Positions 2,126-9,198 of a DNA stretch of 34,341 nucleotides are shown one piece after another. The stretch lies in IMG/VR virus record IMGVR_UViG_2602041549_000012; one strand, given 5' to 3'. The position numbers were made by a program, and so were the translations under genes. The notes under the pieces were generated by a model, which worked only from the letters and a program-made list of their open reading frames with translations, was not told the origin of the DNA and did not search any database. Position 1 is the first letter of the stretch. Each line of letters begins with the position of its first letter. Origin of the DNA: a virus (lineage: Duplodnaviria; Heunggongvirae; Uroviricota; Caudoviricetes).

Positions 2126-2401
2126 ATGAGCAAGCAAGTAACACTCATGACTGATGCGATTCCTTATCAGGAGTTCGCAAAACTAATAGGAAAATCGACA
2201 GGAGCGGTTCGTCGGATGATCGATAAAGGAAAGTTGCCTGTAATTGATATGACCGATCCACAATCAGCTTCAGGTCGTGCTGGTGAATATTGGGTATACC
2301 TTCCGGCATGGAATAACGGACTAAAACTGGCTTATGAAAGCCGCCCTAAAGAAATTCGTGACGGCTGGTTAATGTGGTTAGGTCTCGGTGAACCACGTTA
2401 A
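2126..2401 (+). CDS. cox: Cox excisionase / repressor of Pc (91 aa)
   Basis: 91-aa ORF divergent from C, at the P2 cox position. Confidence 0.85.
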   Translation: MSKQVTLMTDAIPYQEFAKLIGKSTGAVRRMIDKGKLPVIDMTDPQSASGRAGEYWVYLPAWNNGLKLAYESRPKEIRDGWLMWLGLGEPR

Positions 2402-2411
2402 GGAGAACCGT

Positions 2412-2582
2412 ATGAATGAGCCGCGTTGTATTGCTCAGTTATTGCGTAACGAAAGCCCCAGGGCGATTGACTTCACCATCACCCACGGTAAGGGGCGTAA
2501 GGGAATCATTATCCGCACCAAAAAACAGAGTCCGTTAAAGAAGGCTCTGACCTTTCTGAAAAGCCGGAGGGTCTGGAAATGA
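2412..2582 (+). CDS. P2 orf78-like small protein (56 aa from the ATG)
   Basis: The track ORF begins at GTG 2388. The internal ATG at 2412 follows an AAGGAG RBS. Position matches P2 orf78. Confidence 0.5.
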   Translation: MNEPRCIAQLLRNESPRAIDFTITHGKGRKGIIIRTKKQSPLKKALTFLKSRRVWK

Positions 2583-3079
2583 CAGTGATGACGCTTAATC
2601 TCGTTGAAAAACAGCCAGCAGCTATGCGCCGGATAATTGGTAAGCATCTGGCCGTCCCTCGCTGGCAGGATACATGTGATTATTATAATCAGATGATGGA
2701 GCGCGAACGGTTAACGGTTTGCTTTCATGCGCAGTTAAAACAGCGTCACGCAACGATGCGTTTTGAAGAAATGAACGACGTCGAACGTGAACGGCTGGTT
2801 TGTGCAATTGATGAATTGCGTGGGGCATTCTCAAAACGCCGTCAGGTTGGCGCAAGTGAGTATGCATATATTAGTTTTTTAACAGTCAGTCAGCGTCGTA
2901 CTTTATTTATGCATGCCGGATTGACTGAAAAAGAATTCAACCAGCCATACTGGCGAATTAATGAAGAGTCATGTTACTGGCGTGATGCTTTATTCCGTGC
3001 ATTACGTGAATTATTCAGCCTGTTTGAGTATGCACCGACAATTCTGACGTCGGTAAAACCAGAGCAATATCTGCATTAA
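2579..3079 (+). CDS. B: Replication protein B (helicase loader, 166 aa)
   Basis: 166-aa ORF at the P2 B position. ATG overlaps the upstream stop. Confidence 0.8.
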   Translation: MTVMTLNLVEKQPAAMRRIIGKHLAVPRWQDTCDYYNQMMERERLTVCFHAQLKQRHATMRFEEMNDVERERLVCAIDELRGAFSKRRQVGASEYAYISFLTVSQRRTLFMHAGLTEKEFNQPYWRINEESCYWRDALFRALRELFSLFEYAPTILTSVKPEQYLH

Positions 3080-3142
3080 GTAATTAACCAGAGTTTTTAA
3101 CGCACTTAATCGTGCGGGGCTTCTTTTTGCCTGGAGAAAGTC

Positions 3143-3367
3143 ATGCATACAGTTTCTGAAAATCAGTGCGGTAAATACGCATTACTGCTGCAACAGGCCA
3201 GAACCGAAGCACAGGCCGACGCTGCGACGCGCTTTTCTTCTCATCTTGACGCCATGATTCGCCATATCACAAAGGCGGAGTTATCCCGCGTGGAGATAGT
3301 CGAGCTGCTCAGTCAGGAGTCGGAAAAATTTCACAATATCGGATTGTCTCGCGGGGAGGTGCTTTGA
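3143..3367 (+). CDS. P2 orf80-like hypothetical protein (74 aa)
   Basis: Position and size match the P2 early-operon orf80. Confidence 0.55.
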
Positions 3368-3669
3368 TGTCCTGTTCTCATTCAGTTGTATTACTGAATA
3401 ACGCCTTAAAAATCGCCGTTATGAAAAATGGCGATTTGTCTCTTATTCAACTTTGTCTTGATAAAGAAAAACGCGACATAACTGAATCTGTTATCGCGAT
3501 TTATCAGAATGAATTAAACCTCCTGTCTGATGTGGTCAATTTACTTGTTAAACGCGCTGTATTTCATAAGCAAATTTCATCCGTGGATGAACTGACAAAA
3601 TTAACGACAGAAATCGCCAGCTATTGCGCTGATGAATTTAAAAAACTTAACGACAAAAGGAGCTGGTAA
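3367..3669 (+). CDS. P2 orf81-like hypothetical protein
   Basis: The track start at 3364 is TTG. The ATG at 3367 is more likely. Coupled to orf80. Confidence 0.55.
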   Translation: MSCSHSVVLLNNALKIAVMKNGDLSLIQLCLDKEKRDITESVIAIYQNELNLLSDVVNLLVKRAVFHKQISSVDELTKLTTEIASYCADEFKKLNDKRSW

Positions 3670-4165: not shown

Positions 4166-6431
4166 AGCCTCCGGGCGTTTTGTCCCTCCGTCAGCATTTG
4201 CCGCAGGCACCGGTGAGACGTTTACCGGTGCTTATGCATGGAACGCGCCACGCGAGGCCGTCGGGCGCGAAAGACCCCTTACACGTGACGAGATGCGTCA
4301 GGTGCAAGGTGTTTTATCCACGATTAACCGCCTGCCTTACTTTTTGCGCTCGCTGTTTACTTCACGCTATGACTACATCAGGCGCAATAAAAGCCCGGTG
4401 CACGGGTTTTATTTCCTCACATCCACTTTTCAGCGTCGTTTATGGCCGCGCATTGAGCGCGTGAATCAGCGCCATGAAATGAACACCGATGCGTCGTTGC
4501 TGTTTCTGGCAGAGCGCGACCAGTATGCGCGCCTGCCGGGAATGAATGACAAGGAGCTGAAAAAGTTTGCTGCCCGTATCTCATCGCAGCTTTTCATGAT
4601 GTATGAGGAACTCTGCGATGCCTGGGTGGATGCGCATGGCGAGAAAGAATCGCTGTTTACGGATGAGGCGCAGGCTCACCTCTATGGTCATGTTGCTGGC
4701 GCTGCACGTGCTTTCAATATTTCCCCTCTCTACTGGAAAAAATACCGTAAAGGACAGATGACCACGAGGCAGGCATATTCTGCCATTGCCCGTCTGTTTA
4801 ACGATGAGTGGTGGACTCATCAGCTTAAAGGCCAGCGTATGCGCTGGCATGAGGCGTTACTGATAGCTGTCGGGGAGGTCAATAAAGACCGTTCTCCTTA
4901 TGCCAGTAAACATGCCATTCGGGATGTGCGTGCGCGCCGCCAGGCAAATCTGGAATTTCTTAAATCGTGTGACCTTGAAAACAGGGAAACCGGCGAGCGC
5001 ATCGACCTTATCAGTAAGGTGATGGGCAGTATTTCTAATCCTGAAATTCGCCGGATGGAGCTGATGAACACCATTGCCGGTATTGAGCGTTACGCCGCCT
5101 CAGAGGGTGATGTGGGGATGTTTATCACGCTTACCGCGCCGTCAAAGTATCACCCGACACGTCAGGTTGGAAAAGGCGAAAATAAAACCGTCCAGCTTAA
5201 TCACGGCTGGAATGATGAGGCATTTAATCCAAAGGATGCGCAGCGTTATCTCTGCCGTATCTGGAGCCTGATGCGCACGGCATTCAAGGATAATGATTTA
5301 CAGGTCTACGGTTTGCGAGTCGTCGAGCCACACCACGACGGAACGCCGCACTGGCATATGATGCTTTTTTGTAATCCACGCCAGCGTAACCAGATTATCG
5401 AAATCATGCATCGCTATGCGCTCAAAGAGGATGGCGACGAAAGAGGAGCCGCGCGAAACCGTTTTCAGGCAAAACACCTTAACCGGGGCGGTGCTGCGGG
5501 ATATATCGCGAAATACATTTCAAAAAATATCGACGGCTATGCACTGGATGGTCAGCTCGATAACGATACCGGCAGACCGCTGAAAGATACTGCGGCGGCT
5601 GTTACCGCATGGGCGTCAACGTGGCGCATCCCGCAATTTAAAACGGTTGGCCTGCCGACAATGGGAGCTTACCGTGAGCTACGTAAATTGCCTCGCGGCG
5701 TCAGCATTGCTGATGAATTTGACGAACGCGTGGAGGCTGCACGCGCCGCCGCAGACAGTGGCGATTTTGCGCTGTATATCAGCGCGCAGGGCGGGGCAAA
5801 TGTCCCGCGCGATTGTCAGACTGTCAGGGTCGCCCGTAGCCCGTCGGATGACGTTAACGAATACGAGGAAGAAGTCGAGAGAGTGGTCGGCATTTACGCG
5901 CCGCATCTCGGCGCGCGTCATATTCATATCACCAGAACGACGGACTGGCGCATTGTGCCGAAAGTGCCGGTCGTTGAGCCTTTGACTTTAAAAAGCGGCA
6001 TCGCCGCGCCTCGGAGTCCTGTCAATAACTGTGGAAAGCTCACCGGTAGTGATGCTTCGTTACCGGCTCCCACACCTTCTGAGCACGCCGCCGCAGTGCT
6101 TAATCTGGTTGATGACGGTGTTATCGAATGGAATGACCAGGAGGTCGTGAGGGCGCTCAGGGGCGAATTAAAACACGACCTGAGAACACCAAACCGTCAG
6201 CAAAGAAGCGGAAGCCCGTTAAAACCGCATGAAATAGCGCCATCGGCCAGACTGACCCGGTCGGAACGAATGCAAATTACCCGTATCCGCGTTGACCTTG
6301 CTCAGAACGGTATCAGGCCGCAGCGATGGGAGCTTGAGGCGCTGGCGCGTGGGGCAACCGTAAATTATGATGGGAAAAAATTCACGTATCCGGTTGCTGA
6401 TGAGTGGCCGGGGTTCTCGTTACCCATTTGA
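4155..6431 (+). CDS. A: Replication initiator A (rolling-circle nickase)
   Basis: Large ORF at the P2 A position. Contains the HWHMMLF region, consistent with rolling-circle initiator HUH/tyrosine motifs. The track start at 4113 is TTG, so ATG 4155 (MAVKASGRF) is preferred. Confidence 0.85.
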   Translation: MAVKASGRFVPPSAFAAGTGETFTGAYAWNAPREAVGRERPLTRDEMRQVQGVLSTINRLPYFLRSLFTSRYDYIRRNKSPVHGFYFLTSTFQRRLWPRIERVNQRHEMNTDASLLFLAERDQYARLPGMNDKELKKFAARISSQLFMMYEELCDAWVDAHGEKESLFTDEAQAHLYGHVAGAARAFNISPLYWKKYRKGQMTTRQAYSAIARLFNDEWWTHQLKGQRMRWHEALLIAVGEVNKDRSPYASKHAIRDVRARRQANLEFLKSCDLENRETGERIDLISKVMGSISNPEIRRMELMNTIAGIERYAASEGDVGMFITLTAPSKYHPTRQVGKGENKTVQLNHGWNDEAFNPKDAQRYLCRIWSLMRTAFKDNDLQVYGLRVVEPHHDGTPHWHMMLFCNPRQRNQIIEIMHRYALKEDGDERGAARNRFQAKHLNRGGAAGYIAKYISKNIDGYALDGQLDNDTGRPLKDTAAAVTAWASTWRIPQFKTVGLPTMGAYRELRKLPRGVSIADEFDERVEAARAAADSGDFALYISAQGGANVPRDCQTVRVARSPSDDVNEYEEEVERVVGIYAPHLGARHIHITRTTDWRIVPKVPVVEPLTLKSGIAAPRSPVNNCGKLTGSDASLPAPTPSEHAAAVLNLVDDGVIEWNDQEVVRALRGELKHDLRTPNRQQRSGSPLKPHEIAPSARLTRSERMQITRIRVDLAQNGIRPQRWELEALARGATVNYDGKKFTYPVADEWPGFSLPI

Positions 6432-6691
6432 GTAAAAACACAACGTGATTTGATATGGCATTGAATGGCTTATGCGGAGCAGTTATGGGGCAGCAGAAGG
6501 TCAATAGCATGCTGAATTAGAAGGCTAAATGCTATTGAGTGACTAGCATGTCGGTAAGGACAGCCGTTTGATCCGGGTCATAAAAGGCCATCCATTTAGT
6601 CTAATAAAATCATTGCGGGTAACCTTATGTCGACGCATAATTCGTCTTGAGCGAAGTCTTGTCAGTCTTTCATCGTATTGATGATGGGCGC

Positions 6692-6721
6692 AAAAAAACC
6701 ACCCTGGCAGGTGGTTTTTTT
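6692..6721. terminator. Bidirectional rho-independent terminator (A7-hairpin-T7)
   Basis: aaaaaaa-CCACCctggcaGGTGG-ttttttt. The hairpin is flanked by an A-run and a T-run, so it can terminate transcripts on both strands. Confidence 0.55.
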
Positions 6722-6733
6722 GTTTGAAGCATA

Positions 6734-6847
6734 TTAAAGCATAATGCTGACATTGATATTACTGACGTTTACTGACAAACCACTCGGACTACCGTTTGGA
6801 TAGCCAAAGAGGGCCAGAACGAGAATGCAGTAATAGCATTTCTTCAT
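6734..6847 (-). CDS. Small hydrophobic peptide (37 aa), candidate type I toxin-like or membrane peptide
   Basis: ATG at 6847 is preceded by AGGAGG with 4-nt spacing. The peptide MKKCYYCILVLALFGY... has a hydrophobic N-terminus. The stop is followed immediately by the 6692-6721 terminator. Confidence 0.35.
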   Translation of the reverse strand: MKKCYYCILVLALFGYPNGSPSGLSVNVSNINVSIML

Positions 6848-7325
6848 ATTGCCTCCTGTAAGTAGAGGGCAACTTCCACCGGTATATGCGCTTCTTAGGT
6901 GGAATGACTTTTGAGCGAAGTCTTGCCCTGAAATAATGCTCTGTTTAAACGCAAAGTGATTTGGCATATCACCGAACAGAGAGCCGGAAAAACACAACAT
7001 ATAGTATGTCGTTGTTTCTAGACATACATTCTATGTTGTGTAACAAGGGCTTTGCATTAAACATGTTTGAGATTTTATTGATGTAGCTCAAAGTAAAAAA
7101 CAGAGACTACGGATGATAAGGTCTTGAAAGCAATGTAAATTTTTTAAAGTTGCCAATTGCTTAAAAATGTACAGTTGCGGTATGGCGTACTTAAAAAGCT
7201 ATGCATGCAACAAGTGAATGTTTTTGCATGCGTTGGGGATGTCCGTTCAGGCTGCGTGCGGTCAGGACTGGTGCGGATCCATAGTATCTATGCAACTGCA
7301 TTAAAACCGCCCCGTGAAGCGGGCG

Positions 7326-7344
7326 GGCGAGGCGGGGAAAGCAC
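7326..7344. other. cos: Putative cos site (19-nt cohesive end, GGCGAGGCGGGGAAAGCAC)
   Basis: Exact match to the P2 cohesive-end sequence as I recall it. Sits in a GC-rich island flanked by AT-rich DNA, between A and Q as expected for a prophage. Confidence 0.6.
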
Positions 7345-7450: not shown

Positions 7451-8752
7451 ATGGAAAATATAAAGATTGATAAGTTTCTCACTATTCAAAAAGTTGATAT
7501 TCCTCTTAAGAAAGTGAATATATTTATTGGGCCTCAGGCACAGGGGAAAAGTGTCATTGCAAAGCTAATAAAATATTTTAAAGATTACCCTATGGATATA
7601 CTACGAGCTTCAACAGAGGGTAAAACTAAAAGAGATATATTGAAGGAGCAAAAGAATAAGTTTAGTAAAATTTTCCCTCAGCAGTATTGGGCTGATGATG
7701 AGTTTTTTATTGAGTATAGTAATAAGCACTATTGGGTGCGGATTACTAATCGAAAAGATAGCAAAGGGTCATTGAAAATAACCCTTTCTGAGAATTTAAC
7801 GAAGACGATTGCTAAACTTCGTTTGATTGTACGAAAGGATTTAGATGAAAATATTGAGAATTCACTTGCAGAAAGCGTTACGAGAAGACGTAAACGCGGA
7901 ATTGAACATGAATTGCGAGTATGTCTTTCTCTAGGATTGTTTTCAGAACCAGAAACAAAGCTTGAAAGTGTTTTTTATATCCCCGCAGGGCGCTCTTTTT
8001 TTGCTAACTTGCAAAAAAATGTGTTTTCATTTTTATCCAGTAGTATAGAAATTGACTACTTTTTGACAGAGTTTGGTTCTCTGTATGAACAAACAAAAAA
8101 ATTATTTAGCCAAGATTACATGATTAGGATGCTTAGGGGGGCTGTGCCTCAACATGTTAATAAGCTTGTGGAGGAGTTGATTTGCGGAAAATATATAACA
8201 GAAAAGGGTGAGGATTTTATTCGTCATGCTGCTAAAAAGACGAATCTTAACAACTCGAGCTCAGGGCAGCAAGAAGCGTTACCAATGGCTTTAATGTTAT
8301 CCTCATGGCCGTATTTACAGTCTATGACTAGTAAGAGTTTTATTATTGAGGAGCCGGAGGCTCATCTGTTTCCTTCTGCCCAAGCAAAAGTTGTATCTTT
8401 AATAGCCTCAGCGTATAACCAAGCAGAAAGCTATTGTAGCTATACAATAACAACACATAGCCCATATATTCTAAGTGCCTTCAATAATTTGATTCAAGCA
8501 GGTAATGCATTGAAGTGTATTAAGGGCAAGAATAATGCCGATATCGAACGCTTATATAAGCTTGTTCCAGAGTCTCAAATTATTGATTTTGATGATGTGA
8601 CAGCTTATATGGTTAATGCTGGGAAAGTGACGGAAATACTGGATTCCGAACTAAATATATTAGATGCGAATGAAATAGATAGGATTTCCTCTATTTTTTC
8701 AGAGACTTTTGATGCATTGATTGATATCGAATATTCGGCTACTGTGAATTAG
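7451..8752 (+). CDS. Cargo gene 1: ABC-type (AAA_21/AAA_15-like) ATPase, 433 aa
   Basis: Walker A GPQAQGKS near the N-terminus, signature-like SSGQQ, Walker B FIIEEPEAHL, H-loop TTHSP. Strongly AT-rich compared with the phage backbone. Confidence 0.8.
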   Translation: MENIKIDKFLTIQKVDIPLKKVNIFIGPQAQGKSVIAKLIKYFKDYPMDILRASTEGKTKRDILKEQKNKFSKIFPQQYWADDEFFIEYSNKHYWVRITNRKDSKGSLKITLSENLTKTIAKLRLIVRKDLDENIENSLAESVTRRRKRGIEHELRVCLSLGLFSEPETKLESVFYIPAGRSFFANLQKNVFSFLSSSIEIDYFLTEFGSLYEQTKKLFSQDYMIRMLRGAVPQHVNKLVEELICGKYITEKGEDFIRHAAKKTNLNNSSSGQQEALPMALMLSSWPYLQSMTSKSFIIEEPEAHLFPSAQAKVVSLIASAYNQAESYCSYTITTHSPYILSAFNNLIQAGNALKCIKGKNNADIERLYKLVPESQIIDFDDVTAYMVNAGKVTEILDSELNILDANEIDRISSIFSETFDALIDIEYSATVN

Positions 8753-8760
8753 GTGATTGA

Positions 8761-9198
8761 ATGTGTAAAAATTGCAAAGGAAAAACAAAAAATAAAATCA
8801 TTGTGCTATCTGATAAAGGAACGTCAACGCAATTGTCAGTCATAAATGATAATGAGTTGGAGGTTGAGCATAAGTTAATAGATGGTTGCGCTATTGTTGT
8901 TGGGGAGCGGTGTGATCATTATTTGAAGATTTATAACAATCAGGATGTTTCACATCTTTTTGTTGAACTTAAAGGAAGTGATGTTGAAAAAGCTGTTAAA
9001 CAGATAGTGACAACTTTAAAGTCAGGTGTGATTAATGTAGGTGCTAAAGAAAAAAAACATGGTGCTATTGTTAGCACTAGGAATCCGCTAAACTCAACAG
9101 AAACCAATAAGTTAAAGAAGAAAATTCTTTTGAGTGACGGAGTGAATTTGCATTTCTATAAAATGAAGGCGCAGCAAAAAATAACTTCTTTTACATGA
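8761..9198 (+). CDS. Cargo gene 2: small partner protein (145 aa), possible PD-(D/E)xK-like nuclease
   Basis: Starts 9 nt after the gene 1 stop, with an AGGTGA RBS. Has an N-terminal CxxC and a D...hhhhELK arrangement (GERCDHYL...HLFVELKG). Lys-rich and AT-rich. Confidence 0.65.
   Translation: MCKNCKGKTKNKIIVLSDKGTSTQLSVINDNELEVEHKLIDGCAIVVGERCDHYLKIYNNQDVSHLFVELKGSDVEKAVKQIVTTLKSGVINVGAKEKKHGAIVSTRNPLNSTETNKLKKKILLSDGVNLHFYKMKAQQKITSFT

Follow-up and report, generated by a model that had tools for sequence, protein, structure and literature searches.

Between the 3' end of the replication endonuclease gene gpA and the cohesive-end (cos) sequence of a P2-like (Peduovirus) prophage lies a short segment that probably carries a portable two-gene module, controlled by RNA and of the type I toxin-antitoxin kind, whose expression and toxicity are inferred. 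The prophage is the source of the window considered here, by which we mean the whole stretch of 34,341 nucleotides (nt) of the IMG/VR record IMGVR_UViG_2602041549_000012 (Caudoviricetes). Positions 6432-7195, which contain the module (hereafter the cassette), are without any PGAP annotation, while its open reading frame (ORF) of 37 amino acids (aa) is labelled 'hypothetical' in one Salmonella phage record. Comparative sequence analysis delineates two genes with their promoters, RNA structures, a conserved RNA-RNA pairing and coding selection on the ORF. Fourteen divergent copies, whose sources are P2-like phages, inoviruses, plasmids, islands and one N15-like phage, were aligned to define the whole cassette. 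It is composed of a small RNA (sRNA) gene, a shared terminator, the peptide gene, a structured leader, an mRNA promoter and a conserved upstream block (table 1). A preliminary description of this DNA had proposed that a plus-strand RNA of about 75 nt would pair with the leader of the peptide mRNA, a proposal that gains strong comparative support from the promoter, covariation, pairing and ORF selection presented below.

The pairing derives from a direct repeat. The exact 15-mer TTGAGCGAAGTCTTG occurs twice, the second copy at 6911-6925 as originally reported and the first at 6647-6661, instead of 6648-6662. With one mismatch allowed, the 12-nt core of the repeat is found in two places only in the window, for 0.13 matches expected; two or more matches arose in 1 of 100 shuffles, and we calculate that chance alone would place two identical 15-mers less than 300 nt from each other about 0.01 times in 34 kb. 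Duplex prediction, which the preliminary description had suggested as a check, gives 17 bp including one U-G pair at -30 kcal/mol; leaving out the self-evident antisense match to the sRNA gene, no site in the window ranks above the target, and none of 1,000 shuffled sRNAs forms a duplex as good. The 5' end of the predicted sRNA and the leader keep 14-18 contiguous pairs in each lineage, the differences inside the duplex being exclusively U-G or G-U, and at the position after TCTTG the pair follows the path U-A, U-G, C-G across lineages, which constitutes one compensatory position. No copy lacks either seed or target, the spacing between the two staying within 264-269 nt, and both repeat copies always co-occur with the ORF, the same set of IMG/VR contigs being recovered under three independent patterns. 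Not one copy departs from the seed core GAGCGAAGTCTT, even among those recovered through the peptide or by BLAST, and seed and terminator together remain invariant across very divergent copies, among them ones retrieved independently of either.

The sRNA would be expressed from its own promoter, the TTGCGG-N17-CATAAT sequence noticed earlier, which is indeed present, at 6613-6641 and not 6612-6640. All 40 unique full modules have it in the form TTGCG(G/A)-17-CATAAT, with 14 distinct spacers, and in all of them the -10 element stands 7 nt from GAGCGAAG, a constancy that places the repeat at the 5' end of the sRNA. The predicted molecule folds at -27.1 kcal/mol (z = -3.8) and matches its covariance model over 6648-6721 with 94.9 bits. 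The 17 sequence variants (17/17) fold alike, with an unpaired seed, a central hairpin of 8-9 bp that varies in sequence, and the terminator. Compensatory changes affect 5 of the 7 pairs of this hairpin (94% of cells paired), and its covariation score of 0.263, compared with at most 0.119 in slid controls, was reached by none of 500 shuffles, counts that lean towards structure because the alignment was fitted to the covariance model. A scan of Rfam at E values up to 10 returned only subthreshold, terminator-driven matches (RNAI, Phe_leader and OrzO-P). On the minus strand, a promoter-like CTGACA-17-AATTAT at 6637-6665 overlaps the sRNA promoter and is kept as CTAGCA or CTGGCA in relatives; the site may arise simply from the seed and -10 sequences that it overlaps, or may be a genuine promoter directed back towards gpA.

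Both genes would end at the same intrinsic terminator. The hairpin flanked by A7 and T7, to which a function on both strands had been attributed, proves to be perfect: its arms of 13 nt each (6691-6703 and 6710-6722) are 100% complementary around a 6-nt loop, with A7 on the 5' side and T7 on the 3' side. Because these A/T runs lengthen the stem, a simple terminator scan misses it. The terminator sequence is invariant family-wide save for one loop base in a single locus (L097), and here the predicted sRNA and mRNA overlap in antisense for about 33 nt, with a duplex energy of -59.7 kcal/mol.

The peptide gene and its strong ribosome-binding site are as first described, and the Shine-Dalgarno (SD) region retains GGAGG or GGTGG in every lineage of the alignment. 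Judged from its substitutions, the ORF is under purifying selection: close relatives show about 8 synonymous changes versus 3 replaced residues, variable sites number 22/13/33 at the three codon positions family-wide, and pN/pS lies between 0.16 and 0.45, with pS reaching 0.9, near saturation. The N-terminus, MKK or MNR, precedes a hydrophobic stretch of 12-13 residues closing in G-Y-P; then follows a polar PNGSPS or P.GSQS with small residues at -3 and -1 (SQS or SPS), and finally a conserved tail of 15 residues in which polar and hydrophobic residues alternate. The residues CILVL.L.GYP...S..S are invariant. These features suggest a Sec signal peptide followed by a short tail, and not a transmembrane helix of 20 residues; the product may be targeted to the membrane. 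When the 37-aa peptide was used as query in an exhaustive HMMER search, distant homologues with 56-69% identity were recovered, and a profile search added further members from Klebsiella, Kluyvera and Salmonella, none of them named. The peptide matched zero families in Pfam (E up to 10), in NCBIfam (E up to 1) and among the defence-system models of PADLOC, and a degenerate peptide pattern had no match in the GTDB species representatives.

On the minus strand, the predicted mRNA would start near 7021 and run for about 330 nt, with a leader of 174 nt, to its 3' end at the shared terminator. Its promoter is found in all 40 unique modules as TGCAAA-17-TA(G/A)AAT, with 11 distinct spacers. The structure of the leader was obtained by RNAalifold on a plain MAFFT alignment, not fitted to structure; 96% of its cells are paired, slid controls not exceeding 50%, and its 9 compensatory pairs, as opposed to 3.0 +/- 1.2 in shuffles, were matched by none of 500. 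Stem-loop A contributes compensatory pairs at 4 of the 7 positions of its outer stem, with 100% of cells paired. Conserved G-U pairs assign the whole structure to the minus-strand RNA. Two leader loops (6878-6894 and 6950-6958), that of hairpin B (GAAGCGCA.AUA) and the internal one of stem-loop A (UUUGCGUU), are nearly invariant and complementary to each other over 6-7 nt; as neither loop varies, pair counts neither favour nor rule out a tertiary contact between them. A structural switch in which binding of the sRNA frees an anti-SD strand was also considered and dropped as a claim, though retained as a hypothesis, the SD being predicted as paired with or without a blocked target. The inverted repeat formerly given as 6993-7039 and proposed as a possible operator for the mRNA does not bear out that role in general: its left arm (6992-7001) would be transcribed and would pair inside the predicted 5' hairpin of the mRNA, its right arm falls in the variable spacer of the mRNA promoter, and several lineages (L042, L047 and L070) are without it. 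It is therefore no conserved operator, and may have a lineage-specific role.

How would such a cassette work? In the scheme that fits the comparative data best, the minus-strand mRNA would encode the signal-peptide-like protein, and the convergent plus-strand sRNA, beginning with the seed UGAGCGAAGUCUUG, would bind a leader hairpin 64-80 nt upstream of the AUG. The best supported step is that the sRNA would pair with the loop of this hairpin and, in two of the helices that make up the three-way junction, with the 5' strand, thereby disrupting the junction. Such pairing would block synthesis of the peptide by remodelling of the junction, by blocking a ribosome standby site or by cleavage of the duplex; by analogy, the last two are the likeliest options, standby-site blocking being that of tisB and zorO. 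The cassette would then most likely act as an addiction or stabilisation module, or as an abortive-infection module, to the benefit of the mobile element that carries it.

Table 1. Features of the cassette and of its immediate borders, in coordinates of the window.
Feature	Position	Strand	Detail or basis
gpA (replication endonuclease)	3' end at 6431		
Whole conserved cassette (~560 bases)	6590..7150	both	alignment of 14 divergent copies and BLAST extents
AT-rich TAATAAAA	6602-6609		upstream of sRNA promoter
Predicted sRNA promoter	6613..6641	plus	-35 TTGCGG 6613-6618, 17-nt spacer, -10 CATAAT 6636-6641
Seed, repeat copy 1	6647..6663 (15-mer 6647-6661)	plus	15-mer TTGAGCGAAGTCTTG plus TC; exact repeat
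Predicted sRNA, ~74 nt (candidate antitoxin)	6648..6721	plus	5' seed, central hairpin 6665-6689, terminator
Bidirectional intrinsic terminator	6691..6722	both	inverted repeat; common to sRNA and peptide mRNA
37-aa ORF MKKCYYCILVLALFGYPNGSPSGLSVNVSNINVSIML	6734..6847 (ATG 6847-6845, stop 6736-6734)	minus	translation
Shine-Dalgarno AGGAGG	6852..6857	minus	4 nt upstream of ATG
Leader three-way junction	6867..6928	minus	closing helix 6923-6928/6867-6873, target hairpin, hairpin B; RNAalifold consensus
Leader hairpin B	6874-6880 with 6898-6904	minus	conserved loop
sRNA target site, repeat copy 2	6911..6927 (15-mer 6911-6925)	minus	64-80 nt upstream of AUG
Leader stem-loop A	6939..6981	minus	outer stem CTCTGTT...AACAGAG, inner stem GGTGAT/ATCAC
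Inverted repeat	6992..7041	both	perfect 10-nt arms 6992-7001/7032-7041, imperfect extensions in this lineage
Predicted peptide-mRNA promoter	7028..7056	minus	-35 TGCAAA 7056-7051, 17-nt spacer, -10 TAGAAT 7033-7028
Cohesive-end (cos) sequence	about 7326-7344		cosR-annotated linear phage records terminate exactly there

The cassette recurs complete across quite different carriers. Scans of metagenomes and viruses gave 80 loci with 43 unique variants. Among 5,426 complete Escherichia coli genomes, 150 have it, in P2-like prophages, and 2,125 have the cos-proximal segment; most P2-like phages are without the cassette, and it appears in 3 of 50,697 phage records. About 415 plasmids of PLSDB carry it, of which about 392 are from Klebsiella and 352 are conjugative; they are mostly IncF, for instance the IncFIB/IncFII plasmid pKPN-a68, and pGN-2 is another example. 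Natural carriers include E. coli W (NC_017635, with the module near 2,331,092-2,331,593), E. coli E24377A and Klebsiella pneumoniae KPNIH32, the strain with pKPN-a68. In inovirus prophages, one of them in Kluyvera georgiana, the cassette follows the secretin, Zot and DNA-binding genes, in an N15-like element it lies between Toprim RepA and the protelomerase, and it is also present in a Salmonella island; other loci adjoin Abi_2, DUF2971, trypsin-like and SRAP genes. The pattern of seed plus terminator, when sought in the GTDB species representatives, was found in K. georgiana only. Close relatives are 95-98% identical in gpA, and identity across the cassette block ranges from 73% to 98%, with conserved islands at the terminator, the N-terminus of the ORF with its ribosome-binding site, and 6920-6980. 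Joint movement of cassette and neighbouring cargo is unsupported: beside it, L097 and L005 have neighbours of 161 aa that show no relationship to each other. One metagenome contig (L067) has the cassette twice, in two differing versions spaced by 2.9 kb (3367-3440 and 6289-6360), with trypsin-like and other small genes between them. In pGN-2 itself, an IncFIB/IncHI1B plasmid of Klebsiella pneumoniae (L096, NZ_CP019161.1, 1-4347), a type II CBASS operon (SAVED, nucleotidyltransferase, E1-like and JAB) and a gene for a 3'-5' exonuclease lie some 1.7 kb away from the cassette, which here again borders defence genes.

Decay has been caught in a few copies. The ORF, of 37-38 codons, is intact in all copies examined except three, in each of which the peptide is altered. 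One of these (P0014, from Salmonella; L087:6001-6177 and L088) has a deletion from about codon 22 into the terminator, which leaves a fusion ORF of 58 aa together with the sRNA promoter and seed; another (P0003) has lost its stop codon and reads on into the antisense sRNA sequence; the third (P0015) is truncated. As the first two read into antisense sRNA sequence, the 5' part of the sRNA is still present in them. Among the copies examined, none was found with an intact ORF and a broken sRNA gene.

The type I reading is favoured by the nature of the carriers, which are conjugative plasmids, phage-plasmids and prophages, and by the fact that decay alters the ORF. Several observations nevertheless weigh against it. 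The -35 element of the mRNA promoter (TGCAAA) is weak. The SD, with a probability of being unpaired of 0.02-0.33, is predicted to be mostly paired in all 14 variants, whether the target site is blocked or free; in pair counts, moreover, neither a specific anti-SD hairpin nor a loop-loop pseudoknot does better than shuffles. The hydrophobic stretch of about 13 residues falls below the transmembrane helix length of classical pore-forming type I toxins, and the peptide might therefore serve a different purpose, after being secreted or anchored in the membrane. Invariance of both seed and terminator is, finally, unusual for a purely private toxin-antitoxin pair: an additional partner may exist, and the invariance could reflect either such an extra conserved partner or cross-neutralisation between elements.

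If so, the cassette would be an accessory small-protein gene, not a toxin, encoding for example a membrane or periplasmic peptide that serves superinfection exclusion, signalling or modulation of a host envelope protein, with the sRNA setting its level. We take this for a plausible if unlikely account. It would suit an N-terminus that reads as a Sec signal peptide (positive n-region and h-region of 13 residues) followed by the conserved alternating tail, as well as the frequent proximity of defence cargo, and it has a parallel in the type I toxin TimP, which at its native level permits growth (PMC7667032); however, the cassette has the hallmark of type I toxin loci, in that a dedicated sRNA is joined to a leader that is long and structured and to an SD that is probably sequestered, and both the enrichment on conjugative plasmids and phages and the alteration of the ORF in decayed copies speak against it. 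The invariance of the seed (GAGCGAAGUCUUG), maintained even where synonymous sites of the ORF are near saturation, could instead mean that the sRNA acts mainly in trans on a conserved mRNA of the host or of a competing element, the leader being a secondary target or a sponge; sRNAs that depend on Hfq are commonly organised in this way, with their seed at the 5' end and a U-tailed terminator. Yet the complementary site accompanies the sRNA in every copy at its constant distance, flanking positions change in concert in the sRNA and in the leader of its own cassette, and no other strong site is present in the window, all of which makes mainly trans action improbable.

A further alternative needs no sRNA at all: the repeats would be sites acting at the DNA level, for protein binding or as accessories of cos and packaging, and the hairpin would terminate the early operon of the phage. 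In P2-like phages the terminator does lie downstream of gpA, with cos about 600 nt off, and the preliminary description had itself named a packaging element proximal to cos, conserved in phages lacking the peptide gene, as the finding that would overturn its proposal. The repeat, though, never occurs without the peptide gene, and cargo of up to about 2.7 kb separates the cassette from cos in several relatives (L001, L002, L005, L006 and L008). Unrelated genes precede the cassette in plasmids, inoviruses and the N15-like phage, most P2-like phages do without it, and DNA sites would account neither for a conserved promoter and a covarying RNA hairpin of its own nor for mismatches between the repeat copies that are only of the wobble-compatible sort. 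This explanation is largely refuted and in our view scarcely credible.

Returning to the type I reading, one and the same seed/target pair (UGAGCGAAGUCUUG) is found invariant in P2-like phages, inoviruses, telomere phage-plasmids and conjugative Klebsiella plasmids, and hence a resident sRNA could silence the peptide of an incoming element, or else some conserved mRNA of the host could be a further target. In both cases the cassette would amount to a network of cross-element immunity or anti-addiction, possibly with a Sec-exported peptide of 15 residues as its product in place of a classical pore-forming toxin, a speculative and rather unlikely extension of the model. The invariant seed raises a directly testable question of cross-talk between co-resident phages and plasmids. 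Large conjugative plasmids of Klebsiella are carriers of resistance and virulence genes, and if the cassette stabilises them it would be a maintenance factor wholly missed by current annotation and by toxin-antitoxin and defence finders. More generally, if the interpretation is true, it adds an undescribed and unannotated family of RNA-controlled small-protein genes to the mobile elements of Enterobacteriaceae, and in P2-like phages it would make the gpA-proximal edge of the defence hotspot between gpA and gpQ a functional gene cassette, not empty intergenic DNA.

This hotspot was described by Rousset et al. (PMC9122126). In the present prophage, the order past cos is defence-type cargo and then the portal gene of the hotspot. 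The cargo just past cos (7451-9198) encodes a 433-aa ATPase of the AAA_15/AAA_21 families and a 145-aa protein, which match the PADLOC candidate defence system PDC-M29 (2e-31 for component A, 3e-4 for component B), in keeping with the location; relatives have SIR2 or ImmA/IrrE cargo there. The right edge of the conserved block, at 7191-7202, is a recombination junction: among the relatives considered (L007, L009 and L010 included), some contain about 83 additional bp between duplicated 12-nt stretches of junction sequence, and others hold kilobases of cargo at this point. More than ten complete E. coli chromosomes in the databases begin at base 1 of a prophage gpA (for example NZ_CP062865.1, our L006, NZ_CP040269.1 and NZ_CP066839.1), with the cassette at 2278-3196 or 2406-2906, likely because rotation tools took the phage replication endonuclease for the start gene of the replicon. 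A second direct repeat in the region (6436-6465/6947-6976) does not reach significance: the best shuffle gave the same score in local alignment, 25.

In comparison with known systems, the closest working analogue is TimP/TimR, from the ryfA locus of Salmonella and E. coli, in which the 5' end of the sRNA pairs over 18 nt with the 5' untranslated region (UTR) and the toxic peptide bears a signal sequence, a feature that TimP alone has among characterised type I toxins (PMC7667032). As in that system, the cassette would encode a small protein (38-41 aa for TimP) with an N-terminal signal sequence of Sec type, and the 5' end of its predicted sRNA is complementary to a part of the 5' UTR far ahead of the start codon; the mRNA of the TimP system measures about 300 nt. 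By contrast, TimR is upstream and divergent, whereas the sRNA of the cassette is downstream and convergent with a shared terminator, and timPR is a core chromosomal locus while the cassette resides on mobile elements. Homology with TimP finds no backing, since hhalign against the E. coli protein aligns 10 N-terminal residues with 3% probability, and the Rfam model of ryfA (RF00126) gives no match at E values up to 10. The signal-peptide-like product would thus extend the small TimP-type subclass of type I systems.

The systems zorO/orzO, shoB/ohsC, tisB/istR-1 and dinQ/agrB share with the cassette a short perfect complementarity (15-20 nt) far upstream of the SD, a long structured leader and an sRNA encoded by a separate neighbouring gene, and the preliminary description had likened it to systems of the zor/orz or shoB/ohsC type. 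It is, however, no member of these: no family match was found, the sRNAs of these systems are divergent and upstream instead of convergent, and their toxins are single transmembrane helices without features of signal peptides. OrzO-P (RF02083) scores 21.3 bits for a gathering score of 60, on the minus, hence wrong, strand and driven by the terminator, while the OhsC model of Rfam gives no match. With hok/sok the cassette has in common its carriers, conjugative plasmids and phages, and a long, highly structured mRNA with an SD that is likely inaccessible; it differs in having no mok-like leader ORF and in an sRNA that would pair with the distal leader, not with the translation initiation region, and the Hok/Gef domain is absent from the Pfam and NCBIfam scans of the peptide.

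The txpA/RatA and bsrG/SR4 pairs of Bacillus subtilis prophages consist of convergent genes whose RNAs overlap at their 3' ends, and this layout is otherwise known from Bacillus prophage systems. The resemblance is one of layout and of location on prophage elements, and the phylum is another; moreover, the 3' overlap is the sole region of interaction in these pairs, whereas in the cassette the conserved, covarying interaction would involve the 5' seed and the leader, the overlap being merely the shared terminator. The layout of the cassette is unusual in that the sRNA is convergent with the mRNA, shares a bidirectional terminator with it and would pair through its 5' seed with a three-way junction of the leader. 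Neither the peptide nor the seed string was found in searchable papers, the cassette goes unmentioned in RIL-seq and dRNA-seq papers on Klebsiella and one set of supplements, and the papers on the P2 hotspot do not describe it; the 'novel type I' system reported for pOXA-48 is DqlB/agrB, a dinQ-like system of a different family. For these reasons we class the cassette within the known type I toxin-antitoxin kind, where it would represent both a new family and a new variant in architecture, and its presence on hundreds of Klebsiella plasmids and in other phages makes it look like an undescribed family of this sort. The generic features by which type I loci are recognised in silico are found in it, namely a hydrophobic ORF of fewer than 60 aa that appears to be coding, an adjacent putative sRNA gene with its own promoter and terminator, and a predicted pairing between the two RNAs that is conserved across the family.

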